The notes under the pieces were generated by a model. The model did no database searches and had not been told where the DNA came from. It saw only the letters and a list, made by a program, of their open reading frames with translations. The translations under genes were made by a program, and so were the position numbers. From positions 65,109 through 129,108 of the forward strand of contig JAGMAD010000003.1 of NCBI GenBank assembly GCA_023130975.1: a stretch of 64,000 nt of DNA, written 5' to 3'. Of this stretch, positions 1-49,660 are shown one piece after another (position 1 is the first letter of the stretch; each line of letters begins with the position of its first letter). This stretch comes from Candidatus Parcubacteria bacterium (GTDB taxonomy: Bacteria; Patescibacteriota; Minisyncoccia; Minisyncoccales; JAGMDC01).

Positions 1-707
1 AAGATATAATGTCTGGTAAAGCAAGATTAGCCAATAACACAACCTCAAATGTATTTGAACTTCTTGCCAGACACGGAATTGACACTCACTTTATTAAAAG
101 GGCGGGACAGACAGCTTTCTTTGCTTATGAATGCGGTATGATTCCCGTTGAAGTAGTGGTGCGAAGGATTGCAACCGGAAGTTATCTCAAACGAAATCCA
201 AAGGTTGCGGATGGTACCATTTTTGACGAACTGGTAATGGAATTTTTTTACAAAGATGACGAGCTACATGACCCGATGATATGTATCTCTGAGATAGCTC
301 CTGAGGAGTGGCAATTACATAGAGCCGATCGGCCAATTGATTTTTCTGTCTACGTACCATATCAAAGCTTGAGTTATATCAAAACGATCGGTTCTCATTT
401 CACCTGGAAAGAAGCAGATTATATTGAAGAACAAGCTAAACAGATATTCCTAATTCTGGAAAAAGCCTGGAAAGCGTTAGGAATCACTCTTTTGGACTTC
501 AAGATAGAATTCGGCAGACGAAAAGACAATGGTAAAATTATAATCGCTGATGTAATTGACAACGATAGTTGGAGAGTTCGGACAAAAGATGGCAAACAAC
601 TTGATAAACAGGTCTATCGAGAAGGAGGAGAGCTGAAGGAAGTAAGCAACCTCTATGAGATTGTCTCAAATCTGACAAACCGATTTCCTACCCTGAATCT
701 TCAGTAG
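1..707 (+). CDS. purC: SAICAR synthase (phosphoribosylaminoimidazole-succinocarboxamide synthase), 5'-truncated by the window edge
   Basis: Translation shows PurC core blocks (SGKA..N, VEVVVRRIATGS, DELHDPMI, LLDFKIEFG, IADVIDNDSWR). The frame is open back to base 3. The usual N-terminal ~35 aa are absent. Confidence 0.85.
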   Translation, partial: DIMSGKARLANNTTSNVFELLARHGIDTHFIKRAGQTAFFAYECGMIPVEVVVRRIATGSYLKRNPKVADGTIFDELVMEFFYKDDELHDPMICISEIAPEEWQLHRADRPIDFSVYVPYQSLSYIKTIGSHFTWKEADYIEEQAKQIFLILEKAWKALGITLLDFKIEFGRRKDNGKIIIADVIDNDSWRVRTKDGKQLDKQVYREGGELKEVSNLYEIVSNLTNRFPTLNLQ

Positions 708-846
708 AGCCGGGACCCTCGGGAAATCAAATCAAAAAACAAAACAGCCGTCTTGGATTAGATAAAAATCTAATTCTCAAGGCGGATTTTTTTATTCTCA
801 TTGGAAGTTTCTATCTTTACATTATTTGTGATAAAATTAAAATAAC

Positions 847-1641
847 ATGAAAGAAGGAAAACTTTATATTGGAACATCGGGTTGGGTGTATTCTCATTGG
901 CAAGGGATTTTTTATCCTGAAGATTTATCAGGGAAAGATAAATTGAAATATTTTTCTCAACATTTCAAAACCACGGAAATAAATTATTCTTTTTATCATT
1001 TGCCAAAACCAACCACTTATCAAAACTGGTATAAACAAACCCCCAAAGATTTTATATTCAGTGTCAAAGCCAGTCGTTTTATTACCCACACCTGCCTTGC
1101 CGGCAGGCAGGTCAAACGATTAAAAGAGGTAAAAGACGCTTGGAGGCAATTTTTAGAGAATGCTTTAAATCTTAAAGAAAAACTTGGTCCTATTTTATTC
1201 CAATTTCCGCCGAACTTTTCTGCTACCGACGAGAATATGAAAAGACTGAAAGATTTTTTGATATTAACAGAAGCCCGAGACCCGACCTCGGGATTACAAT
1301 CCCGAGGTCGGGGCTCGGTCAAATATGCTTTTGAATTCCGTCATCAAACTTGGTGTGGTCAAAGGATATACAAGTTATTAAAAAAATATAATTGCGCCTG
1401 GGTTATTAGTGATTCACCTTCTTTTCCTAAAGCCGAAGAAATAACCGCTGACTTTATTTATATTAGAATGCACGGTTCCAAGATTTTGTTTTCTTCAAAA
1501 TATACAAATAAAGAATTAAAAAATTTAGCCCAGAAAATCAAAAAATGGCAAAAAGAAAACAAAGATGTTTATATTTATTTCAACAATGATGCCCTTGGCT
1601 ATGCTGTTGAAAATGCCAAACAGCTTTTAAATTATGTTTAA
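847..1641 (+). CDS. DUF72 (YecE-like) family protein
   Basis: GTSGWVYSHW N-terminus plus FQFPP and EFRH..W blocks typical of DUF72. Contains two GC-rich palindromic in-frame inserts. Confidence 0.85.
   Translation: MKEGKLYIGTSGWVYSHWQGIFYPEDLSGKDKLKYFSQHFKTTEINYSFYHLPKPTTYQNWYKQTPKDFIFSVKASRFITHTCLAGRQVKRLKEVKDAWRQFLENALNLKEKLGPILFQFPPNFSATDENMKRLKDFLILTEARDPTSGLQSRGRGSVKYAFEFRHQTWCGQRIYKLLKKYNCAWVISDSPSFPKAEEITADFIYIRMHGSKILFSSKYTNKELKNLAQKIKKWQKENKDVYIYFNNDALGYAVENAKQLLNYV
1090..1112. repeat. GC-rich palindrome CCTGCCTTGCCGGCAGGCAGG in frame in the DUF72 gene
   Basis: Encodes ..CLAGRQV.. within the ITH..KRL block. The same core (CCTGCCTGCCGGCAGGCAGG) occurs at 49569-49588 upstream of sufC. 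Confidence 0.8.
1273..1320. repeat. 48-nt GC-rich hairpin in frame in the DUF72 gene
   Basis: Arms GCCCGAGACCCGACCTCGGGA and TCCCGAGGTCGGGGCTCGGTC (19 of 21 positions complementary) with loop TTACAA. Encodes ARDPTSGLQSRGRGS. Confidence 0.85.
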
Positions 1642-6164: not shown

Positions 6165-6183
6165 ATTATTTTATGTATAACAG

Positions 6184-6580
6184 TGGAAGTGAGGGCATCG
6201 AAGCCCTGTCCAGAAATTTTGCCAAAATATTTCTACAAATTTAGTCCATTTTATTTTTTCGGAATACTGAATAAAAAATGAACAAAATTTCAATATTCTT
6301 AGTTCCTATTTTTAAACAATCATCTGGAACAATATGATTGTCTGTCTCGATAATATGGCACCTTCTTTGTCTATCGAGAATTAATAAAGAAGATGGCATT
6401 ACGATTAAACGTAAGCAGGAGCTAAACTGGCTATACCTCCGCCAAAGGCATTGGTAAGAGCCGTTTTAGCTTTAGAAAATAAGCCATTGACACTTATTTT
6501 TTTTCTCAAAGTTTTGCGAGATTTGAGAAAACTCGACTTGCATACTTTAACTCAAATTTCTGTCGAGACCTGACACTCCC
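6184..6580 (-). ncRNA. ssrA: tmRNA (SsrA)
   Basis: On the minus strand, 5' GGGAGUG pairs with 3' CACUUCC (G3:U wobble) followed by discriminator A. T-arm is AGGGC-UUCGAUG-GCCCU. The 5' region GGGAGUGUCAGGUCUCGACAG parallels the canonical GGGGCUGAUUCUGGAUUCGACGG. An internal open frame ends ..GIASLAPAYV-UAA (TAA at 6407-6405). The gene is adjacent to smpB. The CCA is not fully encoded. Confidence 0.85.
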
Positions 6581-9254: not shown

Positions 9255-12200
9255 ATGGACACAAATTTCCCTAACTTAGAAAAAAAGATTATAAAATTTT
9301 GGAAAGAGAACAGAATTTTTGAAAGATCAATTGAGCGACGCGAAAAAGCGCCTAATTTTGTTTTTTACGAAGGACCACCCTTTGCTAATGGCAAACCCGG
9401 TATTCATCATCTTTTGGCGCGGGCATTTAAGGATATGACTCTACGTTATAAAACAATGAGGGGTTATAAAGTAAAAAGGAAAGCTGGATGGGATACTCAT
9501 GGTTTACCGACTGAAATAGCCGCAGAAAAGGCATTAAAAATCAAAACGAAAAAAGACATAGAAAAAATTGGCATAGAGAAATTTATTAAGGAGTGTAGAA
9601 AAAATATCTTTACTTACAAAAAAGAATGGGAAAATTTCACTGAACGCATTGGTTTCTGGCTTGACATGGAAAATGCTTATATTACCTGTAGTAATAATTA
9701 TATTGAGTCGTTGTGGTGGATATTAAAACAGGTTTGGCAGAAAGGGCTTTTGTATCAGGATTATAAAGTGGTTCCTTATTGTCCGAGATGCGGAACATCG
9801 TTATCGTCCCACGAAGTAGCCCAGGGATACAAGAAAGTCAAAGAAAATTCAATTTATGTAAAGTTTCCTGTCAAAGGACAGAAGAATACTTATTTCTTGG
9901 TATGGACAACAACTCCTTGGACATTGCCAGGGAATGTGGCAATCGCAGTAAATTTGAAACCTACCTATGTCAAATTAAAGCTTAATAATGAATATCTGAT
10001 TTTAGCTAAACAGAGAATTAAGGATTGTGGAATAGAGGGAAAAATCACGAAAGAGTTTAAGAGAAAAGATTTGGTTGGATTGGAATATCAGCCCTTATAT
10101 AAAATTAAAATTAAGAAAGTCGGATTTCCTAAGGAAGTCCGACTTTCCGATGCTTATAAAATAATCCCTGCGGATTTTGTTTCCTTAGAAGAAGGAACAG
10201 GTTTAGTTCATATTGCACCTGCTTTTGGTGAAGATGATATGAATGTTAGTAAAGAAAATAATCTTCCTGTTTTAATAACAGTAGATGAACAAGGTAAAAT
10301 GAAAGCACCAAGTTATAAATGGAATAAGCTGTTTGTGAAAAATGCTGATCCGTTGATTATTGAAAATTTAAAAAAGAGAAAGCTGCTTTTCAAGGAAGAA
10401 TCGTATGAGCATGATTATCCTTTTTGCTGGAGATGTAAAACTCCTTTGATTTATTATGCTAAGAAGGCCTGGTTTATTGAGATGACCAAAATTAAAAAAG
10501 ATTTACTCAAAAATAACGAAAAGATAAACTGGGTTCCTAAACATTTAAAACAAGGCAGGTTCGGCGAATGGTTAAGGGAATTAAAAGATTGGGCTGTTTC
10601 CAGGGAAAGATATTGGGGCACACCCTTGCCTATCTGGAAATGTGAAAAATGCAGCCATCAGGAATTCATTGGTTCAAAAGAAGATATATTGAATCAAAAA
10701 TTTACTACTAATAAGTATTTTATTTTACGACATGGTGAATCAGAGTGTTCTAAAAAAGAAATAGGTGTTTCCAGCCCAGGAAAAGATTTATGTCCGTTGA
10801 CCAAAAAAGGAATGGCGCAAGTCCAGAAAGCCGCGCAGGAGTTAAAAAAAGAAAAAATAGATATTATTTTTTCTTCTGATTTATTGCGGACAAAACAAAC
10901 AGCGGAAATTGTTGGCAGAGCATTAGGTGTAAAAATAAAATACGACAAGCGGTTAAGGGAAATAAATTTTGGGATTTATGACAATAAATCGTTGAAACAA
11001 TGGAGGGGATTTTGGTTGGAAAGAAGCAATAGATTGAGAAAAAGACCTCCTTTAGGGGGAGAAAATTATACAAACGCAAAGAAAAGGATGTATAAATGTT
11101 TAAAAGATATTGATGAAAAATACAAAAGAAAAAAAATTTTAATAGTCAGCCATGGCGGCCCGATTTTAATGCTGTCGAGCGTAGTGAAAGGATTGTCCGA
11201 TGAAGAGATTACAAAACTCTTAAAAAGAGAACGAAAATTATTTCCAGTAGGGAAATGGCATAAAATAGATTTCAGGATTCTGCCTTACAATAAGCAGGGA
11301 GAATTGGATTTCCATAAGCCATATATTGATGAAGTAAAATTTAAATGTTCCAAGTGTGATAATTCAATGAAGCGAGTTTCAGAAGTGATTGATTGCTGGT
11401 TTGATTCTGGCGCAATGCCGTTTGCCCAATATCATTACCCTTTTGAAAACAAGAATCTAATTAACCCTTCGACAAGCTCAGGGCAAGTAAATCAATTTCC
11501 AGCAGATTTTATTTGCGAAGGAGTAGACCAAACTAGAGGTTGGTTTTACACTTTACTGGCTATTTCTACTTTGCTGGATTTGAGTCCGTCTTATAAAAAT
11601 GTCATTTCTTTGGGTCATGTTTTGGACGAAAAAGGGGAGAAAATGTCTAAATCAAAAGGAAATGTAGTTGATCCCTGGTATGTTATTGAAAAATATAGTT
11701 CAGATGCTGCTCGTTGGTATTTTTACACTATAAATCAGCCAGGTGATTCAAAACTTTTTACAGAGAAAGATGTAGATAATGCATTAAAGAAGTTTATTTT
11801 AACTTTTTGGAATATACATACTTTTTTTGAAACTTATGTTCCCAAAAAAGAATCTTTCAAATTTCAAGTTTTAAGTTCTAAGAATTTATTAGATAGATGG
11901 ATAATTTCTAAATTAAACAACTTGATTTTAGGAGTTTCTAAGAAATTGGATAATTATGATATTACTTCAGCTGCCAGAGATATAGAAGATTTTGTTATTA
12001 ATGATTTATCTCTATGGTATGTGAGGAGGTCCAGAAAAAGGTTTCAGAACCCTAAAACAAAAAAAGATTTTCAAGAAGCATCTGAGACCCTAAATTTTAT
12101 TTTATTAACTTTGAGTAAAGTAACAGCACCGTTTATTCCTTTTTTGAGTGAGGAAATATATCAAAAAGTCAAAAGTCAAAAGTTAAAAGTTAACAGTCAA

Positions 12201-12749
12201 AAGTCAACACATTTAGAGAAATGGCCAGAAGCAAATGAAAAATTAATAAATAAAAAGTTAGAAAAGAAAATGGAAATAGTTCGGGAGATTGTGGCACAAG
12301 GATTATCCCAAAGAGCAAAAGCAGGAATAAAAGTCCGCCAACCATTAAATAATTTTCAATTTTCAATTTTCAATTTTCAATTAGAAAAAGAATTATTAGA
12401 TTTGGTTAAAGAAGAGGTGAACGTAAAAGAAATTAGTTTTGGCAAGGAAACAAAGTTAGATACTAAAATTACGCCAAAGTTAAGGGAAGAAGGAATAGTC
12501 AGAGAAATTATTCGCAATACTCAAGAAATGCGTAAAAAAGCTGGTTATAAGCCAAAAGACAAAGTTTTAATCAGGTATACTGGAGATAAAGGGCTGAAGA
12601 AAATTTTAGAAAGAAATAAAAAGACAATTTTAAAAGAGATTGTAGTTAAAGACCTTTTAGAGGGTGATAGGCCGAAAAGAGTTTTTGATATTGAAAAAAC
12701 CTTTAAAATAGAAAACCAAGAACTCTGGTTGGGAATTAGAAAAATTTAA
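9255..12749 (+). CDS. ileS: Isoleucine--tRNA ligase (type 2) with embedded histidine-phosphatase domain
   Basis: PFANGKPGIHH (HIGH), KMSKSKGN, WTTTPWTLPGN, and zinc knuckles CPRCGT and CWRCKT. It is 1164 aa because of a 196-aa insert plus several short inserts. Confidence 0.95.
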   Translation: MDTNFPNLEKKIIKFWKENRIFERSIERREKAPNFVFYEGPPFANGKPGIHHLLARAFKDMTLRYKTMRGYKVKRKAGWDTHGLPTEIAAEKALKIKTKKDIEKIGIEKFIKECRKNIFTYKKEWENFTERIGFWLDMENAYITCSNNYIESLWWILKQVWQKGLLYQDYKVVPYCPRCGTSLSSHEVAQGYKKVKENSIYVKFPVKGQKNTYFLVWTTTPWTLPGNVAIAVNLKPTYVKLKLNNEYLILAKQRIKDCGIEGKITKEFKRKDLVGLEYQPLYKIKIKKVGFPKEVRLSDAYKIIPADFVSLEEGTGLVHIAPAFGEDDMNVSKENNLPVLITVDEQGKMKAPSYKWNKLFVKNADPLIIENLKKRKLLFKEESYEHDYPFCWRCKTPLIYYAKKAWFIEMTKIKKDLLKNNEKINWVPKHLKQGRFGEWLRELKDWAVSRERYWGTPLPIWKCEKCSHQEFIGSKEDILNQKFTTNKYFILRHGESECSKKEIGVSSPGKDLCPLTKKGMAQVQKAAQELKKEKIDIIFSSDLLRTKQTAEIVGRALGVKIKYDKRLREINFGIYDNKSLKQWRGFWLERSNRLRKRPPLGGENYTNAKKRMYKCLKDIDEKYKRKKILIVSHGGPILMLSSVVKGLSDEEITKLLKRERKLFPVGKWHKIDFRILPYNKQGELDFHKPYIDEVKFKCSKCDNSMKRVSEVIDCWFDSGAMPFAQYHYPFENKNLINPSTSSGQVNQFPADFICEGVDQTRGWFYTLLAISTLLDLSPSYKNVISLGHVLDEKGEKMSKSKGNVVDPWYVIEKYSSDAARWYFYTINQPGDSKLFTEKDVDNALKKFILTFWNIHTFFETYVPKKESFKFQVLSSKNLLDRWIISKLNNLILGVSKKLDNYDITSAARDIEDFVINDLSLWYVRRSRKRFQNPKTKKDFQEASETLNFILLTLSKVTAPFIPFLSEEIYQKVKSQKLKVNSQKSTHLEKWPEANEKLINKKLEKKMEIVREIVAQGLSQRAKAGIKVRQPLNNFQFSIFNFQLEKELLDLVKEEVNVKEISFGKETKLDTKITPKLREEGIVREIIRNTQEMRKKAGYKPKDKVLIRYTGDKGLKKILERNKKTILKEIVVKDLLEGDRPKRVFDIEKTFKIENQELWLGIRKI
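10115..10147. repeat. GAAGTCGGAYTTCC hairpin family, copy in ileS (in frame)
   Basis: GAAAGTCGGATTTCC-TAA-GGAAGTCCGACTTTC, encoding KVGFPKEVRLS. Confidence 0.85.
10713..11300 (+). other. Histidine phosphatase (PGAM-like, branch 1) domain inserted inside IleRS
   Basis: The insert contains LRHGES, SSDLLRTKQTA, REINFG and VSHGGPI in canonical order. It sits between IleRS blocks PIWKCEKC..FIGSKEDI and DFHKPYIDE..VIDCWFDSG. Confidence 0.85.
12164..12208 (+). repeat. In-frame AAAGTCA oligo-repeat in ileS
   Basis: AAAAGTCAAAAGTCAAAAGTTAAAAGTTAACAGTCAAAAGTCAAC, encoding KVKSQKLKVNSQKST. Confidence 0.8.
12351..12382 (+). repeat. In-frame (TTTTCAA)x4 repeat in ileS
   Basis: AATTTTCAATTTTCAATTTTCAATTTTCAATT, encoding NFQFSIFNFQL. 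The same heptamer occurs in the 39490-39535 intergenic region. Confidence 0.85.
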
Positions 12750-13518: not shown

Positions 13519-15204
13519 ATGAGAAACAAATTGATATTATTTTTAATATTTTTGAGTGTTCTTATAGGAATAACTGGTTTTTGGTATTACCAAAAAAATA
13601 TTTATTCAAAAGAAATTATAAAGTTAGAAATATTAGGCCCGGAACGAGTGGAAGCAGGTGAGGAAGTTGAATATATTGTTAAGTATAAAAATAATGGTGA
13701 TACCAGAGTGGAAGAGCCAAAACTGATTTTTGAATATCCAGAACATTCAATAACTGAAGATGGTTATTTAAGAGATGAGGTCGGACCTGAAAAGCTTGGT
13801 GAAGCAATTTATCCTGGCGAGGAGAAAACATTTCAATTTAAAGCCCGGCTGTTAGGAAAAGAAAAAGAAAATAAACAAGCTAAAGCAGTGTTAACCTATC
13901 GGCCTAAAAATTTAGAATCGCGGTATGAATCAAAAACCACCTTTACTTCTATTATTGAAAAGGTCCCTTTGACTTTTGAGTTTGATTTTCCTTCAAAAAT
14001 TGAATCAGACAAAGAAATAAAATTTCGGCTTAATTACTTTTCCTATATTGATTATCCACTTGCTGATTTAGGAATAAAAATTGAATATCCTTTTAACTTT
14101 GAATTTAAAAAATCTTCCCCTTCTGCTTTAGAAAATACCGAATGGTCAATTAATCTCTTAGATAAATCAGATGGAGGAAGGATTGAAATTACTGGCAAGG
14201 TTTCCGGTGATGTTGGAGAAAAGAAAATTTTTGAAGCCAGGATAGGTGTTTGGCAAAAAGGAGAATTTGTTTTATTAAAAGAAGCGTCTAAGGGCATAGA
14301 AATTATTGAACCATCTCTCTATATTTCTCAGCAGATTAATGGAAATCCTCAATATGTCGCTAATGCCGGCGACCTACTTCATTATGATGTTTTCTTTAAA
14401 AATATCGGAGAAAAGGCCTTAACCAATCTTTCTTTAGTAACAAAGTTAGAAGGGAAAATTTTTGACCTTGAGACCATAAAAACATTTGATGGTAATTTCG
14501 GGCCCGGAGACAATTCAATTATTTTTGACTGGAAAAAAGTTCCCAAGCTCCAGTTTTTAGATTCTCAAGAAGAGGGCAGAGTTGAGTTCTGGATAAATTT
14601 AAAAGACGACTGGCAAATGGATAATTTAGAAGATAAAAATCTGACAATAAAAAATAAAATTTATTTGTCTCAACAAGCCCGGGAAGAATTTATAACTAAA
14701 GTGAATTCAAAGTTAGTTGTTGAACAAAAAGGATATTTTCAAGACGAGGTCTTCGGCAATTCCGGACCAATTCCGCCAGAAGTTGGTAAAACTACCACTT
14801 ATACTATAATCTGGCAGATTCAGAATTATTACAATGATATCAAGAATGTAAGAGTGAAGGCAATTTTGCCTTCTAGAGTAAATTTAACTGGTAAAATTTT
14901 TCCAGAAGAGCAAAATGAAAAATTTGCTTTTGATTCCAGCTCCAGAGAAATTGTTTGGAGCATAGAAGCTTTACCCCCCACCACTTTTGCTACCAAAAGT
15001 GGTGGGGGGTCAACAATTGCTTTTCAGATTGCTTTTATGCCAAGTATTCATCAAACAGGACAAACTCCAGAAATTATTGGGGAGGTATCTATCTTTGCTG
15101 AAGATACCTGGACAGAAGAATTATTAGAGAGCAGTGATGAAAACATAGATACAACCCTGCCTGATGATGAAACTGTCATTGAACAACAGGGTATTATACA
15201 GTAA
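13519..15204 (+). CDS. Membrane-anchored surface protein with CARDB/DUF11-like beta repeats
   Basis: N-terminal TM helix followed by repeated modules (VEYIVKYKNNGDT, LHYDVFFKNIGEKAL, TYTIIWQIQN). The domain call is approximate. Confidence 0.7.
   Translation: MRNKLILFLIFLSVLIGITGFWYYQKNIYSKEIIKLEILGPERVEAGEEVEYIVKYKNNGDTRVEEPKLIFEYPEHSITEDGYLRDEVGPEKLGEAIYPGEEKTFQFKARLLGKEKENKQAKAVLTYRPKNLESRYESKTTFTSIIEKVPLTFEFDFPSKIESDKEIKFRLNYFSYIDYPLADLGIKIEYPFNFEFKKSSPSALENTEWSINLLDKSDGGRIEITGKVSGDVGEKKIFEARIGVWQKGEFVLLKEASKGIEIIEPSLYISQQINGNPQYVANAGDLLHYDVFFKNIGEKALTNLSLVTKLEGKIFDLETIKTFDGNFGPGDNSIIFDWKKVPKLQFLDSQEEGRVEFWINLKDDWQMDNLEDKNLTIKNKIYLSQQAREEFITKVNSKLVVEQKGYFQDEVFGNSGPIPPEVGKTTTYTIIWQIQNYYNDIKNVRVKAILPSRVNLTGKIFPEEQNEKFAFDSSSREIVWSIEALPPTTFATKSGGGSTIAFQIAFMPSIHQTGQTPEIIGEVSIFAEDTWTEELLESSDENIDTTLPDDETVIEQQGIIQ
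14974..15009. repeat. Perfect 15-bp-arm palindrome in frame in the 561-aa surface protein gene
   Basis: CCCCCCACCACTTTT-GCTACC-AAAAGTGGTGGGGGG, encoding PPTTFATKSGGG. Confidence 0.85.
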
Positions 15205-33457: not shown

Positions 33458-33588
33458 TTTTTTCTTTTTCACCCCCTATGAAATTTTTTGAATACTAAAA
33501 TAAAATTAGCATATCCAAAAATTTATGTCAAATTTTTATAGAAAATGTAAATCATAGATTAACATCAAAGCAAAATTATGTTAAAATT

Positions 33589-33611
33589 AAAAGGAGGTGA
33601 AACCTCCTTTT
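33589..33611 (+). promoter_or_regulatory. Perfect 10-bp hairpin occluding the GGAGG upstream of the LAGLIDADG ORF
   Basis: AAAAGGAGGT-GAA-ACCTCCTTTT ends 6 nt before ATG 33618. Confidence 0.6.
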
Positions 33612-33617
33612 AAAATT

Positions 33618-34622
33618 ATGTCTTGTGTTCCAGTTTCTATTTCAAAAAATGAATTAAAGGATTTATATGAAAAGAAAAAATTAACTACATATGAAATAGC
33701 TGATATTTATTATTGCTGTCAGGGAACTATCTGGAAAAGACTAGAACAATATGGAATTAAACGTCTTCCTAATGGCAGAAGATCCTTTGTTATTTCTAAA
33801 TCTAAACTGAAAAACCTCTATATCAAACAACGACTTTCTAGTAGGAAGATAGCAAAAATATATGGATGTGCTTATTCGACTATAGATTACAAAATAAGAG
33901 AGTATGGGTTTCCAGTAAAAACTCTTGCAGTAGCACATATTACTACACTGCGCAAAAATTTCGATGAAAATAAAACAAATAAAGCTTATCTGATTGGTTT
34001 TGCAATGGGGGATTTGAGAGTAAGGAAGAAATATCCAAATAGTGAAACCATAAACGTTGATTGTGCATCTACTAAAGAAGAACAAATTAATCTTATTTCA
34101 GGATTATTTAAACCCTATGGGAGAGTTTGGGTTAGTAAACCAAATAAGAAAGGAGCCACTCAAATCGAATGTTCTTTAAATGATTCCTTCAATTTTTTAT
34201 TAAAAAAGCGAATTTTAATTGACCTTTGGATTATAAAAAATAAAAAATATTTTTCGGCATTTCTTGCAGGATTTACTGATGCTGAAGGATGTATTTCTAT
34301 TACTAATAAAGAGTTAGCTTTTTATTCTTTGGGGAATTACAATAGTCAGCTTTTATCACAGATTCGAAACCAACTTCTAGAAATTGGGATAGAAAGTCCC
34401 AAACTAACTGAGGGAAAAACCAAAGGATATGTTGGAAGGGAAGGATATGCGAACAATCAAAACTATTGGTCGCTGCGTCTTAACAGAAAAATTCATTTAT
34501 TAAAACTTTTTGATTTAATTGATCCTTATTTAAAACATCCTACAAGAATTAAGGGTATTAAAAGAGCAAAGCAAAATATTAAATTGCGAAATATAAAATT
34601 TGGTAATCTTAAAATGAATTAA
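33618..34622 (+). mobile_element. Free-standing LAGLIDADG homing endonuclease with two N-terminal HTH modules
   Basis: Two LAGLIDADG-type motifs (LIGFAMGDLRV, FLAGFTDAEGCISI). Duplicated N-terminal module L(K)xLYxKxxL(S/T)xxxIAxIY.C...TI...(L/I).(Q/E)YG. No intein junction residues. The ORF also opens at GTG 33597. Confidence 0.8.
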
Positions 34623-34633
34623 TTTTGATTATT

Positions 34634-36055
34634 ATGAAAAAATCTTTCTTTATTTCTACGGCTATTGATTATCCTACCGAACAGGGGCATCTTGGCCATG
34701 CTTTAGAAAAAGTGCAAGCAGATGTTATTGCGAGATATAAAAGACTTCAAGGTATTGATGTCCATTTTAGCGCAGGAACAGACGAGCATGGGCTTAAAAT
34801 TCAAAGACGTGCTCAAAAAGCAGACAAAAAACCGCAAGAATTTGTGGATGAAATGAGTAAATATTTTAAAAATCTATGGAAAATATTAAACATCTCAAAT
34901 AATGATTTTATTAGGACTACCGAGAAAAGACATATAAAAGTTGTTCAAGAAATTATTAAGAAAATTTACAAGAAAGGTGATATTTATAAAGGAAAATATA
35001 AAGGATTATATTGTGTAGATTGCGAGAGTTATTATTTACCAAAAGATTTAGAAAATGGAAAATGTCCAATTCACAAGAAACCAGTAGAGTTGATAGAAGA
35101 AGAGACATATTTTTTTAGAATGAGTAAATACCAAAAACAACTTCAAGATTATATTAAAAAAAATAAAAATTTTATTATTCCTGTAGGTAAAAGAAACGAA
35201 ATCTTAAACCGGCTAAAAGAGCCCTTACAGGATTTAAGTATTTCTAGAAAAACAGTTCTATGGGGAATTCCATTACCTTTTGATAAAAAACTTTCTCTTT
35301 TTGTTTGGGTAGATGCTTTATGTAATTATCTAACTACGATTGGTTATCCCAATAATAAATCTAAAAAATTTTGGCCTGCTGATGTCCATATTATAGGAAA
35401 AGATATCGTTTGGCATCACACCGTAATTTGGAGCAGTTTATTATCGTCTTTAAAATTGCCTTTGCCAAAAACTATATTTGTTCACGGTTTTATCACATCT
35501 GGCGGTCAAAAAATGTCAAAAAGTTTGGGCAATGTGGTTGACCCATTTGTGTTAGTTGAAAAATACGGGACTGATGCTGTTAGGTATTTTCTTTTGCGAG
35601 AAATTCCGCCAACTGAAGATGGTGACTTTACCTATCAGAAGTTTGAGCAAAGATACAACTCAGACCTTGCGGCTGGAATTGGTAATTTGGTGGCAAGAGT
35701 AATAACGCTTGCGAAAAATTCCAAATTCCAAATTCCAAATTCCAAACAAATTCCAAATTCAAAATTCCAAACAGCAGTAAATAAAACATGGGGAAATTAT
35801 GAAAAAGCGTTGGACAATTTTAAATTTAACGAAGCCCTGAGAGAAATTTGGAAATTAATTAGCTTTTGCGACCGCTATATTGAAAAAGAGAGACCTTGGG
35901 AAAAGTCCAAGCATCAAGAACAAACAATCAAGAATCTATTATTTGCCTTAAGAAATATAGCTGAAATGTTAGAGCCGTTTTTGCCAGAAACATCAGAGAA
36001 TATATTAAAACAGATTAAAACAAAAAAAAGCAAACCACTTTTCCCTAGAATTTAA
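34634..36055 (+). CDS. metG: Methionine--tRNA ligase (short form)
   Basis: AIDYPTEQGHLGH (HIGH region), KMSKSLGN, and zinc knuckle CVDCESYY..CPIHKK. The ORF also opens at TTG 34625. Confidence 0.93.
   Translation: MKKSFFISTAIDYPTEQGHLGHALEKVQADVIARYKRLQGIDVHFSAGTDEHGLKIQRRAQKADKKPQEFVDEMSKYFKNLWKILNISNNDFIRTTEKRHIKVVQEIIKKIYKKGDIYKGKYKGLYCVDCESYYLPKDLENGKCPIHKKPVELIEEETYFFRMSKYQKQLQDYIKKNKNFIIPVGKRNEILNRLKEPLQDLSISRKTVLWGIPLPFDKKLSLFVWVDALCNYLTTIGYPNNKSKKFWPADVHIIGKDIVWHHTVIWSSLLSSLKLPLPKTIFVHGFITSGGQKMSKSLGNVVDPFVLVEKYGTDAVRYFLLREIPPTEDGDFTYQKFEQRYNSDLAAGIGNLVARVITLAKNSKFQIPNSKQIPNSKFQTAVNKTWGNYEKALDNFKFNEALREIWKLISFCDRYIEKERPWEKSKHQEQTIKNLLFALRNIAEMLEPFLPETSENILKQIKTKKSKPLFPRI
35711..35772 (+). 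repeat. In-frame AAATTCC oligo-repeat in metG
   Basis: GCGAAAAATTCCAAATTCCAAATTCCAAATTCCAAACAAATTCCAAATTCAAAATTCCAAAC, encoding AKNSKFQIPNSKQIPNSKFQ. Confidence 0.85.
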
Positions 36056-36058
36056 TTT

Positions 36059-36904
36059 ATGTTGTTTGATACTCACGCTCATCTTAATTTTGCTGTTTTT
36101 GACAAGGATAGGAAAGAAATGATTAAAAAATGCTTGGAAAATAATGTTTGGATGATAAATATAGGAACAAATTATGAGACCTCAAAAAAAGCAGTTGAAA
36201 TTGCGGGAAAATATAATGAAGGGGTTTATGCGGCAATTGGACTTCATCCCATAAATTTAGAGACAAATCTGATGAAACAAAAGTTTGATGAGAATGAAGG
36301 CGGCCGGTTTGAAAAAGAATTTAATTATGGAAAGTACAAAAAGCTTGCCTTAAGTTCTAAAAAGATTGTTGCTATTGGTGAAATCGGCTTGGATTATTGG
36401 CGAAAACCCAAGACAAAGAAAAAACTAGCAGAATTTAAAAATAAACAAAAAAATTTACTTTTACAAGAAATTAAATTAGCGCAGGAATTAGAATTGCCCA
36501 TAATCTTTCACTGCCGAATGGCTCACGACGACCTGATAAAAATATTACAATACAAAGAAGTCGGACTTCCTAAAGGAAGTCCGACTTCTAAAAAAGCCGT
36601 AATTCATTGCTTTACTGGAACTTGGGAGCAGTCAGAAAAATTTTTAGAAATGGGATTTTATTTGGGTTTTAATGGGATTGTTTTTAAATTAGACCTTGAT
36701 GAAATAATTAAGAAAACACCCCTGAATAGGATTTTAATAGAAACAGATTGCCCTTTTTTAACTCCCCCAAATTTCAATGAAGAAAAAAATAATCCTTTAG
36801 GTGTAAAATTCGTTGCTGAACATATTGCTAAAATTAGAAATCTCCCTCTTGAAAAAATAGCTGAAATTACCAGCACAAACGCTAAAACACTTTTTAAGAT
36901 TTAA
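36059..36904 (+). CDS. tatD: TatD family metal-dependent hydrolase
   Basis: MLFDTHAHLNF, GEIGLDY, IFHCR, HCFTG and ETDCPFL blocks. Confidence 0.9.
   Translation: MLFDTHAHLNFAVFDKDRKEMIKKCLENNVWMINIGTNYETSKKAVEIAGKYNEGVYAAIGLHPINLETNLMKQKFDENEGGRFEKEFNYGKYKKLALSSKKIVAIGEIGLDYWRKPKTKKKLAEFKNKQKNLLLQEIKLAQELELPIIFHCRMAHDDLIKILQYKEVGLPKGSPTSKKAVIHCFTGTWEQSEKFLEMGFYLGFNGIVFKLDLDEIIKKTPLNRILIETDCPFLTPPNFNEEKNNPLGVKFVAEHIAKIRNLPLEKIAEITSTNAKTLFKI
36556..36589. repeat. GAAGTCGGAYTTCC hairpin family, copy in tatD (in frame)
   Basis: AGAAGTCGGACTTCC-TAAA-GGAAGTCCGACTTCT with perfect 15-bp arms, encoding EVGLPKGSPTS. Confidence 0.9.
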
Positions 36905-36910
36905 AATTTC

Positions 36911-36955
36911 AAAACCCGACCTTAAAATTGTAATCAAGGTCGGGTTTTTTACTTT
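36911..36955 (+). terminator. Intrinsic terminator after tatD
   Basis: AAAACCCGACCTT-N13-AAGGTCGGGTTTT followed by a T-run. Confidence 0.8.
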
Positions 36956-42081: not shown

Positions 42082-43785
42082 ATGTTTGAAAATATTTTAG
42101 AAAAAGAAAACAAAAAAGTTTTCCTTTTAGGAAACGAGGCAATAGTAAGAGGCGCTTTGGAAGCAGGCGTCCAGTTTGTTTCTACTTATCCCGGGACACC
42201 GGCTTCAGAAATAGGGAATAGCTTTTATGAAATTCAAAATTCAAATCCGCCAGCTGGCGGAAAAATTAAAAGCTTTTATTTTGAATTTTCTGTGAATGAA
42301 AAAGTGGCGATAGAAGCAGCAGGAGGTGCTTCTTTTTCTGGTTTACGTTCTTTGGTAGCTATGAAAAATTTTGGTTTGAATGTTGCTTCTGATTTTTTAC
42401 TTCCTCTGGTTTATTCCGGTGTTAAAGGAGGAATGGTCATCCTGTCAGCAGATGATCCTTCCTGTCATAGTTCAGCTCAGTCCGAAGAGAATACTCGGGC
42501 TTTTGCTTCTTTAGCGCATATTCCTATTCTTGAGCCATCAACACCGCAGGAATGTAAGGACTTTGTAAAATTTGCTTTTGATTTGTCTGAAAAATTCCAA
42601 ATTCCAGTAATGATTCGGGAAACCACCCGAGTAGCCCACCAAAGCGCTCCAGTAAAATTATCTAATATCCAATATCTAAAATCTAATATCCAGTTTATTA
42701 AAGACCATAAGAAGTTTGTGACAATGCCGCCAAGAGTTTTGGAAATGCACCAAGAGCTGTTGGAGAAGATTGAAAAAATCAGAGATTTTTCCGAGATAAG
42801 TAAATTAAATTCAATATTTAGAAGTCGGACTTCCGCTGGAAGTCCGACTTCTCGTAAATTAGGTATTATTACTTCAGGTGTGTCTTATCTCTATGTAATG
42901 GAAGCTTTAAAAGAATTAAATTTAGATATCCCGGTTTTGAAATTGGGCTTTTTTTATCCTTTACCAGAAGAAAAAATTAAGAAGTTTATTAATCCGCCAA
43001 CTGGCGCATTAAAAAAAGTCCTGATAGTAGAAGAATTAGAACCCTATTTAGAAAATGAAGTAATGAGATTAGCAAAAGAAGTTAACTGTAAATTAAAAAT
43101 CGTGGGCAAGGAGTTAATCCCAGAAGTTGGTGAATTAAAACCAGAAATTGTAACTTCGGCTATCGCCAAATTCACAAATAAAAAACATCCAACATTAAAC
43201 ATCCAACATCCAACATCTATTCCAAAACGTCATCCACAGCTTTGCCCTGGTTGTCCTTATTGGTTTGTTTTTAACGGTGTAAAGAAAGCCACTAAAGATA
43301 TGGATATTATTTTCGGCGGTGATATTGGCTGTTATATGTTAGCCGGATTTTCTCCTCATAATATTCAGGATTATCTTTATTGTATGGGTTCTTCAATTGG
43401 TATCGCCCATGGAATTAAGAAAGCTGCTCCGCCGGATGGCGGACAAAAACTTATTACTTTTATTGGTGATTCAACTTTTTTTCATTCTGGCATTCCAGCT
43501 TTAATTAATACTGTTTTTAACAAGTCAAATCCATTAATAATTATTATGAATAATTCCACTACTGCTATGACTGGCCATCAACCTCATCCGTCTGCACCAG
43601 CTGAACCTGACGGAATAGAGATTGAAAGTATTGTTAAGGCCTGTGGGGTCAAGAATTTAAGAACGATTGACCCAGCCAAGCAGGAAGAATTTGTAAAAAC
43701 AATCAAGGAGTTTTTAAAGAAAGATGAAGTTTCAGTAATCATTGCTCGCCATCCCTGCATATTTGTGAAAAAACAAAAAGGTTAA
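42082..43785 (+). CDS. iorA: Indolepyruvate:ferredoxin oxidoreductase alpha subunit (no C-terminal ferredoxin domain visible)
   Basis: LLGNEAIVRGALEAGVQFVSTYPGTPASEI and the TPP region CPGCPYW..GDIGCY..GDSTFFHSG. Confidence 0.85.
   Translation: MFENILEKENKKVFLLGNEAIVRGALEAGVQFVSTYPGTPASEIGNSFYEIQNSNPPAGGKIKSFYFEFSVNEKVAIEAAGGASFSGLRSLVAMKNFGLNVASDFLLPLVYSGVKGGMVILSADDPSCHSSAQSEENTRAFASLAHIPILEPSTPQECKDFVKFAFDLSEKFQIPVMIRETTRVAHQSAPVKLSNIQYLKSNIQFIKDHKKFVTMPPRVLEMHQELLEKIEKIRDFSEISKLNSIFRSRTSAGSPTSRKLGIITSGVSYLYVMEALKELNLDIPVLKLGFFYPLPEEKIKKFINPPTGALKKVLIVEELEPYLENEVMRLAKEVNCKLKIVGKELIPEVGELKPEIVTSAIAKFTNKKHPTLNIQHPTSIPKRHPQLCPGCPYWFVFNGVKKATKDMDIIFGGDIGCYMLAGFSPHNIQDYLYCMGSSIGIAHGIKKAAPPDGGQKLITFIGDSTFFHSGIPALINTVFNKSNPLIIIMNNSTTAMTGHQPHPSAPAEPDGIEIESIVKACGVKNLRTIDPAKQEEFVKTIKEFLKKDEVSVIIARHPCIFVKKQKG
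42246..42261. repeat. TCCGCCAGCTGGCGGA palindrome, copy in iorA
   Basis: AAATCCGCCAGCTGGCGGAAAAA, read as N P P A G G K. Degenerate relatives lie at 42991-43006 and 43428-43445. Confidence 0.8.
42661..42692 (+). repeat. In-frame TCTAATATCC oligo-repeat in iorA
   Basis: TCTAATATCCAATATCTAAAATCTAATATCCA, encoding SNIQYLKSNIQ. Confidence 0.75.
42820..42852. repeat. GAAGTCGGAYTTCC hairpin family, copy in iorA (in frame, shifted register)
   Basis: AGAAGTCGGACTTCC-GCT-GGAAGTCCGACTTCT with perfect 15-bp arms, encoding RSRTSAGSPTS. Confidence 0.9.
43185..43218 (+). repeat. In-frame CATCCAA/CAACAT oligo-repeat in iorA
   Basis: ACATCCAACATTAAACATCCAACATCCAACATCT, encoding HPTLNIQHPTS. Related to the CAACAT repeats in the 41447-41475 intergenic region. 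Confidence 0.8.
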
Positions 43786-43793
43786 AATTTTAG

Positions 43794-43826
43794 GGAAGTC
43801 GGATTTCCAAAGGAAATCTGACTTCC
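43794..43826. repeat. GAAGTCGGAYTTCC hairpin family, intergenic copy (iorA-iorB spacer)
   Basis: GGAAGTCGGATTTCC-AAA-GGAAATCTGACTTCC, with one G-T pair. Confidence 0.85.
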
Positions 43827-43833
43827 AAGCATT

Positions 43834-44424
43834 ATGACAAACAAAAAAGAATTTAACATAGTGATTGTTGGCACTGGGGGACAGGGTTTGATTACCCTGC
43901 TACAGATTTTAGCTGAAGCGGCTTTAATAGAAGGTTATGATATAAAAACCTCGGAACTTCATGGTTTGTCTCAAAGAGGAGGTTCAGTAGAGGTTCATAT
44001 TAGATTTGGCCAGGAGATATTTTCGCCTTTGGTTGCTCAAGGAAGAGCTGATTTAATTTTGGCATTAGAAATACAAGAATCCCTGAAAGGAATTTATTTT
44101 AGCAATCCTAAAACATTTTTTTTAATAAACAAATTTTTTGTTCCAATTTTAGGAGAAAAATTATTAGAAGAAAGTGATATTTTAAAAGAGCTTAAAAAAA
44201 ACAGCAAGAATATAGTTTTAATTCCAGCAGCTGATATTTGTCAAAAAGAGCTTGGCAAAAATGTAGTAGCAGGCGTTTATTTACTGAGTTATGCTTCTCA
44301 CAAGAAAATTATTCCCTTAAAGCCAAATTCTATTTTAAAAGCAATGGAAAAAGTAGTTCCGAAAAAATATTTTGCCTTAAATAAAAAAACTTTTGAATTA
44401 GCTAAAAAATATGGCAAAGATTGA
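43834..44424 (+). CDS. iorB: Indolepyruvate:ferredoxin oxidoreductase beta subunit
   Basis: IVIVGTGGQGLITL..SELHGLSQRGGSVEVHIRFG. Confidence 0.85.
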   Translation: MTNKKEFNIVIVGTGGQGLITLLQILAEAALIEGYDIKTSELHGLSQRGGSVEVHIRFGQEIFSPLVAQGRADLILALEIQESLKGIYFSNPKTFFLINKFFVPILGEKLLEESDILKELKKNSKNIVLIPAADICQKELGKNVVAGVYLLSYASHKKIIPLKPNSILKAMEKVVPKKYFALNKKTFELAKKYGKD

Positions 44425-49534: not shown

Positions 49535-49660
49535 AACTACCCCGCCCTAAAGGGCGAGGTATCCCTGCCTGCCTGCCGGCAGGCAGGCCTTCAGGCGAGT
49601 TCTTTCAGCGGCTTTCATTTCCGCCGCAAGCGGCGGGATATTGCTGCCGCCGAAATAAAC
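49535..49660. repeat. GC-rich cluster of three or more palindromes (REP/BIME-like) between the CcdA-like gene and sufC
   Basis: CCCCGCCC-TAAA-GGGCGAGG, CCTGCCTGCC|GGCAGGCAGG, and TCCGCCGC-AA-GCGGCGGGA with an alternative partner GCTGCCGCCG. There is a strong local GC contrast. Confidence 0.8.

Follow-up and report, generated by a model that had tools for sequence, protein, structure and literature searches.

Why should the same short and nearly perfect DNA hairpin recur within a single bacterial locus, three times in frame inside genes for conserved enzymes and once between genes? The question is raised by a 64,000-nucleotide stretch of the genome of a Candidatus Parcubacteria bacterium (contig JAGMAD010000003.1, positions 65,109 to 129,108), the whole of which is referred to below as the window, and in particular by the hairpin at window positions 36556-36589, within the gene for a TatD family hydrolase. 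The evidence collected here makes it quite probable that this hairpin is a dimer, comparable to a REP doublet forming a hairpin (REPIN), of a unit of the repetitive extragenic palindromic (REP) type, that the unit is tied to a Patescibacteria-wide clade of Y1/HUH transposases resembling the REP-associated tyrosine transposases (RAYTs), and that copies lying in frame in protein loops persist. What is unusual about this REP/REPIN-like family is that the elements are small and lie mostly within genes, and that the transposase gene contains the repeat.

The four copies of the hairpin in the window share the general form GGAAGTCGGAYTTCC-loop-GGAARTCYGACTTCC, and re-reading of the sequences places all of them, three in frame and one intergenic, where a first-pass annotation made from the letters alone had located them. 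Copy 1 (10115-10147, 33 nt) is GAAAGTCGGATTTCC-TAA-GGAAGTCCGACTTTC, with one arm mismatch that forms a G-T pair, and is contained in ileS (9255-12749, plus strand, 1164 aa; Pfam tRNA-synt_1 and Anticodon_1), where it is read in frame as KKVGFPKEVRLS. Copy 2, the flagged one (36556-36589, 34 nt), is AGAAGTCGGACTTCC-TAAA-GGAAGTCCGACTTCT with perfect 15-bp arms and is read as KEVGLPKGSPTS within tatD (36059-36904, plus strand, 281 aa; Pfam TatD_DNase, profile positions 1-253 of 253), the product of which is identical to P0001, named TatD family hydrolase of Candidatus Parcubacteria bacterium. Copy 3 (42820-42852, 33 nt), AGAAGTCGGACTTCC-GCT-GGAAGTCCGACTTCT, also with perfect arms, is read as RSRTSAGSPTS in iorA (42082-43785, plus strand, 567 aa; Pfam POR_N and TPP_enzyme_C). 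Copy 4 (43794-43826, 33 nt), GGAAGTCGGATTTCC-AAA-GGAAATCTGACTTCC, has one G-T pair, represents the variant GGATTTCC/GGAAATC and occupies the 48-nt spacer between iorA and iorB (43834-44424, plus strand; Pfam POR, gamma-type subunit), the start codon of which follows 7 nt after the end of the copy. All three host proteins retain full-length Pfam domain matches. The host genes, the translated registers and the 15-bp arms, perfect in two copies and with a single G-T pair in the other two, are thus as the first-pass annotation described them, and so is the variation of the loop: GCT in the IorA copy is a whole in-frame codon, and TAA in its place would be a stop.

The recurrence is far beyond chance. 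With a 14-mer arm and at most two mismatches allowed, 15 arm matches were found in the window against 0.57 expected, and none of 100 shuffles reached 15. When folded as single-stranded DNA, every window copy forms the full 15-bp hairpin (-13.3 to -16.9 kcal/mol; z = -5.5 to -9.0). At the gathering threshold Rfam yields no match at the hairpins, the sole match in the window being the transfer-messenger RNA (tmRNA). A point absent from the first-pass annotation is that each arm is palindromic itself, GGAAGTC-S-GACTTCC (core GAAGTC-S-GACTTC), and the hairpin is accordingly a doublet of two tandem 15-mers with complementary central bases.

In the window, the coding copies represent insertions at tolerant loops of conserved proteins. 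In the HMMER alignment of IleS with the Thermus thermophilus enzyme (1ILE), an exact 11-residue gap stands opposite ikkvgfpkevr, equivalent to 33 nt, the length of the hairpin; the IorA segment is missing from P0241, which at 80% identity is the nearest cluster representative, and likewise from every remoter homologue in the alignment. Alignment of orthologues, which had been proposed as a check, thus reveals relatives without the insert for both proteins. The TatD insert falls in a gap of the alignment to Thermotoga maritima TatD (1J6O). In the AlphaFold model of the window protein (mean predicted local distance difference test score, pLDDT, 86), it is placed in a coil between helix 156-164 and strand 180-183, and residues 171-175 are the sole run of at least three residues with pLDDT below 50; the suggestion that the inserts would map to surface loops thus agrees, for TatD, with a predicted position in the lowest-confidence loop of an otherwise good model. 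Judging from the open reading frames (ORFs), the inserts are presumably translated as peptides.

The same TatD loop carries different elements in different relatives. P0003 (70% identity; L159 688-721) has a C-first doublet of the same family, read EVRLPAGSRTS, and P0002 (71-72% identity; L160, gene 10001-10813) has a solo palindrome of another REP type, AAGGAGGTTCAACCTCCTT, whereas the peptide EVQPPEGGQTSE in P0004 resembles, at the protein level only, a doublet of the AAGGAGGTTCAACCTCCTT type. Insertion or replacement has a hot spot in this surface loop of TatD. Other odd peptides occupy the same surface loop (window 36545-36600) in further TatD relatives.

A search for the arms in related genomes, again a check proposed with the first-pass annotation, gave matches far above chance. 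Scanned with the exact pattern AGTCGGAYTTCC-N2-6-GGAARTCYGACT, species-representative genomes yielded 47 loci and metagenome contigs 103, against a chance expectation that we calculate as ~0.1 in 596 Gb; after removal of duplicates, 115 distinct doublets remain in public genomes and metagenomes. The named hosts are almost all Patescibacteria from many classes (Giovannoni-, Lipton-, Nealson-, Vogel-, Sung-, Jorgensen-, Doudna- and Tagabacteria, and metagenome-assembled genomes, MAGs, labelled Saccharibacteria), with single matches in MAGs labelled Omnitrophota, Atribacteria and Thermoflexales, and the GC content of the doublet loci ranges from 30 to 66%. Both G-first and C-first doublets exist. 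Solo units occur as well, often with extended palindromic flanks, TCAAT-N4-(15-mer)-N4-ATTGA. CAAY is found 3-5 nt upstream of 24 of the 115 doublets and RTTG downstream of 24; in the window, CAAT precedes copies 2 and 3 (36548-36551 and 42812-42815, plus strand, each 4 nt 5' of the hairpin), the latter with a partial ATTA mirror on the 3' side, and both tags probably represent the outer-arm motif of the full-length unit.

A perfect short palindrome might be suspected to come from sequencing or assembly, for instance from a hairpin adaptor or a chimeric junction, and AAGTCGGA also begins the MGI/BGI adaptors. The probability of such an artefact is nevertheless negligible: the element is present in assemblies of many independent projects, the reading frames continue for hundreds of codons to either side, the copies vary by point changes and in the loop, and the sequence is encoded at a conserved position of a transposase ORF (see below). 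Three other origins were considered and rejected. Phages as vectors between lineages find no support in viral contigs, which contain no doublets and 97 solo 15-mers, about the chance rate; CRISPR repeats are dismissed because the spacing is irregular and most loci are single-copy; and the similarity to a conserved RNA, the 16S rRNA with its GAAGTCGGAATCGC, is limited to 9 shared bases and was judged a coincidence.

The genomic context of the 115 doublets agrees with the proposal that the element is tolerated only where the frame stays open. Fifty-nine are situated well within ORFs of 250 aa or more, 25 lack any spanning ORF of 120 aa and 31 are ambiguous. The intragenic doublets, with loops of 3, 4 or 6 nt, are in frame and make use of all three frames (EVGLP in 25, GSRTS in 20 and KSDF in 14); direct reading shows the 15-mer to be stop-free in all six. 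By our own estimate, the intergenic fraction (25 of 115, 22%) is about twice the expected non-coding share, which fits a selective filter on intragenic copies. One 38-nt variant recurs identically in genes for an FtsK-like protein, RecG, TopA, LeuS, ribosomal protein L3 and GatB of different genomes, where it is read LEVGLPSGSPTS, and the same DNA lies on the opposite strand in the trigger factor gene, where it reads KEVGLPLGSPTS; identical variants in unrelated genes imply insertions rather than conserved residues.

Complementarity of the arms is maintained across the family. A relaxed search returned 145 doublets with 235 departures from the consensus but only 105 arm-to-arm mismatches, a count that includes three chance pairs with 7-9 mismatches each; in 21 variant doublets the two arms complement each other perfectly, as in GGATGTCAGATATCC/GGATATCTGACATCC, CGAGGTCTGACCTCC/GGAGGTCAGACCTCG and GGAGGTTTAACCTCC/GGAGGTTAAACCTCC. 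At one locus represented in two metagenomes (L068 7584-7616 and L150 378-410), arms and flanks are identical and the 3-nt loop is inverted, CGG in the former and CCG in the latter, which indicates recombination between the arms. Compensatory change, loop inversion between two strains and the different palindromes in the TatD loop of different lineages could all be expected if the palindromes arose in place, in tolerant loops, by template switching (quasi-palindrome correction) without any transposition. This process, however, offers no way for unrelated genes of unrelated genomes to acquire one and the same 15-mer, or 38-nt variants that are identical, and it leaves unexplained why the same unit flanks transposase genes, so that as the origin of the family it is very unlikely; template switching may help to keep the arms matched once a copy exists.

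If the hairpin is a REP-type dimer, a transposase of the RAYT kind should be sought, and Y1 genes flanked by the same 15-mer are indeed present in related genomes. On the contig L031 (30% GC), solo units are found after several genes and on both sides of a 238-aa ORF with the sequence YHIYNRG, an HUH motif (NHFHL) and a tyrosine motif (GxLFQGKYK); the HUH and the tyrosine are conserved in the family, and the ORF matches Pfam Y1_Tnp (IS200-like) with 28.8 bits, above the cut-off. Homologues were detected by tblastn at the hairpin-selected loci L031/L128, L049/L132, L102, L090 and L064/L026, and a database search returned more than 7000 relatives at E <= 1e-10; among the matches listed, identities are 58-71% and the hosts are Wolfe-, Lipton-, Brenner- and Nealsonbacteria and the Parcubacteria group. 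Housekeeping genes surround the transposase gene. The best Foldseek match of the structure model in the PDB is 4ER8, a complex of the Escherichia coli RAYT with a REP hairpin (E = 5.6e-5), followed by the TnpA proteins of IS608 and ISDra2. The contig L031 also contains a doublet, KKSDFLRKSDFL, in frame near the C-terminus of a group II intron-type reverse transcriptase/maturase ORF (295-1542, minus strand), together with GIY-YIG, HicAB and a Cas2-like/PaaX protein. The contig, which bears the label Atribacteria, looks rich in mobile elements.

The association of the repeats with the Y1/HUH transposase gene is physical, and the two co-vary. Thirteen RAYT-like genes were compared, those of L031, L049, L090, L026 and L102 and eight more from loci fetched by protein identity alone, which were thus not selected for the hairpin. 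All 13 have palindromic repeats within ~60 nt of the ORF, 11 of them at both ends, and in L258 and L102 repeats are seen at one end only. The flanking repeat differs by lineage, with at least seven types: GGAAGTCSGACTTCC in L031, L151 and L154; its compensatory variant GAAATCSGATTTC in L049; CTTACGAGGCTWAGCCTCGTAAG in L152 and L259; CTTACGAGGTTSAACCTCGTAAG in L153; CTATYGACTTACGAAGTCRATAG in L155; CTATCGAAGCTWAGCTTCGATAG in L156; ATTGAGGTTTAACCTCAAT in L258; CCTAGGTCAGACCTAGG in L090; and a GC-rich 18-mer in L026. Across the repeat types examined closely beside transposase genes, CAAT stands before the hairpin and ATTG on the mirror side. Judged by the central base, the orientation of the flanking units follows no consistent rule (G then C in L151, G then G in L154, C then G in L031).

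These results separate the two halves of the original proposal of a REP- or MITE-like mobile element, the REP half being upheld by the doublets and by the association with a RAYT-like gene. The other half, a miniature transposable element with inverted repeats (MITE) moved by a DDE-type transposase with the 15-nt arms as terminal inverted repeats, would account for two inverted arms, very small size and many copies. Flanking direct repeats of 2-5 nt, though, are no commoner than in shuffled pairs (observed 11, 1, 1 and 0; expected 9.7, 2.5, 0.9 and 0.1), so that target duplication is not apparent and the MITE alternative is unsupported. Moreover, single-arm units exist and are the form found beside transposase genes, the only transposase that recurs beside the units is the Y1/HUH enzyme, and the window contains no DDE transposase; a MITE is thus a highly improbable interpretation. 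For the REP-type reading, by comparison, the absence of target-site duplication is as expected from chemistry of the IS200/IS605 type.

The co-variation of repeat and transposase also bears on the possibility that the palindrome is a functional motif of the host, such as a site bound by a dimeric DNA-binding protein, a signal for DNA uptake or an RNA element with a stabilising or attenuating effect, kept at each site by selection. The arm is a classic dimer-site palindrome, the sequence hardly varies between genomes that belong to many classes and range from 30 to 66% GC, the iorB start codon follows copy 4 at a distance of 7 nt, and REPs elsewhere have gained host roles (PMC3733652). However, the copies occupy non-homologous positions in a scatter of unrelated genes, close orthologues lack them, no T run follows the hairpins, the invariance is in part an artefact of the exact-pattern search given that relaxed searches yield many variants, and the repeat type tracks the neighbouring transposase gene. 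As the general explanation, a host motif is therefore unlikely; it is compatible with the REP-type origin to the extent that single copies could have been co-opted.

An additional repeat is located inside the transposase ORF. The family has a conserved segment with the consensus QSKEVGLPKIER, the DNA of which is a full-length unit, for example TCTCAATTTAAGGAAGTCGGACTTCCTAAAATTGAGA in L031, and in 7 of the 10 genes examined the internal type is the same as the flanking type. The segment reads KEVGLPK in L031, L151 and L154, YEAKPRK or YEAKPHK in L152 and L259, YEVQPRK in L153 and IDLRSQY in L155, and is diverged in L049, L156 and L258; the internal copies lie at 5316-5330 in L031, 10180-10194 in L151, ~10186-10218 in L152 and ~10180-10205 in L153. 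In the structure model, the segment falls in a low-confidence loop (residues 57-66). No description of an internal repeat was found in the RAYT literature searched. The internal repeat is most simply explained by short-range gene conversion with the copies that flank the gene, and the segment may have an autoregulatory or master-copy role. A further, rather doubtful proposition is that the internal copy, translated as QSKEVGLPKIE or as the counterpart peptide of another repeat type, is functional, as an autoregulatory hairpin or binding site or as a master copy, and that both internal and fixed host-gene copies, such as that in the TatD loop, are rewritten to the current type through transposase-mediated replacement at a conserved CAAT target. 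If true, the whole radiation would possess in this system an engine that inserts peptides in frame into essential proteins. The repeat within the transposase gene, co-varying with the dispersed copies, offers a direct handle on the co-evolution of RAYTs and REPs.

The REP-type reading can be put in mechanistic terms by analogy with the E. coli RAYT and the TnpA of IS608 (PMC3479197, PMC6006769). The unit is the 15-nt palindrome GGAAGTC-S-GACTTCC, with the full form CAAT-N4-5-(15-mer)-N4-5-ATTG, and two units with complementary centres and a 3-6-nt loop make up the 33-36-nt hairpin. The transposase may recognise the folded hairpin in single-stranded DNA and cut at its foot, probably at the CAAT tag, and rejoining would copy or move units, giving rise to new copies and dimers without target duplication. 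With genomes that are almost entirely coding, new copies would mostly land in genes, and the survivors would be stop-free, in-frame copies at tolerant surface loops, translated as inserts of 11-12 residues.

Several observations weigh against this reading. The association between unit and transposase is correlative, and mobilisation by the enzyme is what we infer from it. In agreement with the first-pass annotation, which reported no RAYT-type or other transposase in the window, neither the window nor the 9 kb on either side encodes a RAYT-like protein, and the flanks contain no more hairpin copies. The sole NCBIfam match of the transposase is NF047646, REP-associated tyrosine transposase, with 42 bits (E ~1e-10) against an equivalog cut-off of 80; its sequence profile finds no relative in the PDB, and the structure model that was compared with 4ER8 is mediocre (pLDDT 65). 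No GTAG or CGTC tag adjoins the units, and the CAAT/ATTG outer arms are kept in only ~20% of the doublets. Finally, no empty site was recovered at near-identical sequence, which makes the insertion boundaries inexact; this caveat bears most on the 34-nt copies, which need two extra bases to remain in frame.

Compared with the REP/REPIN-RAYT systems of E. coli and Pseudomonas (PMC3116915, PMC5581495, PMC3479197), the family shares short palindromic units (15 to ~30 nt) in many dispersed copies, frequent inverted doublets that fold into one hairpin, the absence of target duplication and, in related genomes, a Y1/HUH transposase gene flanked by cognate units the type of which co-varies with the transposase lineage. 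It differs in that the doublet spacer is 3-6 nt and the whole hairpin 33-36 nt, much smaller than in described REPINs; in that the CAAT/ATTG outer motif takes the place of the GTAG tag; and in that at least half of the doublets (three of four in the window) are intragenic and in frame rather than extragenic. The transposase is only a distant relative of the RAYTs by the NCBIfam score (42 bits against 80) and, among the cases examined, mostly carries its own repeat inside the ORF, and the hosts are Patescibacteria. No REP/RAYT description was found for these hosts: when the literature was searched for RAYT or REPIN together with either Patescibacteria or the candidate phyla radiation, none of the papers listed contained both, and a search with the exact arm sequences found no paper.

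In-frame palindromes in conserved proteins, as singles and dimers, are also known from the intragenic GTAG/CGTC REPs and the Rickettsia palindromic elements (RPEs), the inserts of which occur in replication, repair and translation genes, among others, and add short extra peptides to proteins that are presumably functional; RPE-1 is ~100-150 bp long and without a known transposase (PMC3733652 and references there). The present element, by contrast, is 33-34 nt long, differs from the RPEs in sequence, tags and host, and spans a whole radiation rather than one genus, and its intragenic copies are a majority where those of the GTAG/CGTC REPs and the RPEs are a minority in their species. With the insertion sequences of the IS200/IS605 type (IS608, ISDra2), it has in common the HUH and tyrosine superfamily, presumably also the recognition of hairpins in single-stranded DNA, and the lack of target duplication, but there the transposase gene and the ends move as one multicopy unit, whereas the dispersed copies of the present family consist of the hairpin alone. 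Motifs of the TCAA/TTGAT kind in the flanks resemble IS200/IS605 cleavage and target sites. Suyama, Lathe and Bork are reported to have described, in 2005, palindromic repeats with coding potential in Methanocaldococcus jannaschii. These are likewise very short palindromes tolerated in frame in protein-coding genes, although in an archaeal host and with an unrelated sequence; they are not known to be linked to a transposase.

By definition REPs are extragenic, and most work on them concerns Proteobacteria; a system of the same kind is seen here across the Patescibacteria. The genomes of these bacteria are ~1 Mb in size with almost no intergenic space, and most surviving copies are consequently inserts, presumably translated, in essential enzymes. 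This would account for part of the many short odd insertions in proteins of the radiation. The inserts constitute a natural map of insertion-tolerant loops and, at the same time, a warning to annotators and phylogeneticists that inserted segments are not homologous residues.

Several other features of the window are worth recording. Residues 489-654 of IleS (window 10719-11216) form a complete His_Phos_1 domain (histidine phosphatase, with the RHG motif) between the two halves of the catalytic domain of the 1164-aa protein; the IleS of a relative (L160, 1109 aa) contains the same domain, which points to a conserved fusion rather than a misassembly. Other GC-rich in-frame palindromes, unrelated in sequence to the hairpin, lie at 1275-1318, 14970-15013, 42262-42275, 42989-43012 and 49538-49588, with a DUF72 protein, a DUF7619 protein, IorA (twice, NPPAGGK and INPPTGALK) and the start of an ABC (ATP-binding cassette) ATPase as hosts; the INPPTGALK segment represents, when compared with every IorA homologue in the alignment, an insert of 4 residues. 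Several families of coding palindromes seem to be present in the window. Upstream of tatD, a 341-aa ORF with a LAGLIDADG_3 domain (33597-34622) directly precedes a 476-aa ORF (34625-36055) that is, by synteny with L160, an aminoacyl-tRNA synthetase of the tRNA-synt_1g type, and the palindrome TTAAAAGGAGGT-GAA-ACCTCCTTTTAA (33582-33618), which resembles a unit of the GGAGGTTSAACCTCC type, overlaps the start of the former ORF. The tmRNA gene (6181-6580, minus strand; Rfam RF00023, 120.8 bits) adjoins smpB. Seven nt after the tatD stop codon, a 15-bp hairpin, AAAACCCGACCTTAA-N8-TCAAGGTCGGGTTTT, followed by T residues (36911-36948), is probably the tatD terminator, and its core, CCCGACCT, recurs in the palindrome at 1275-1318.

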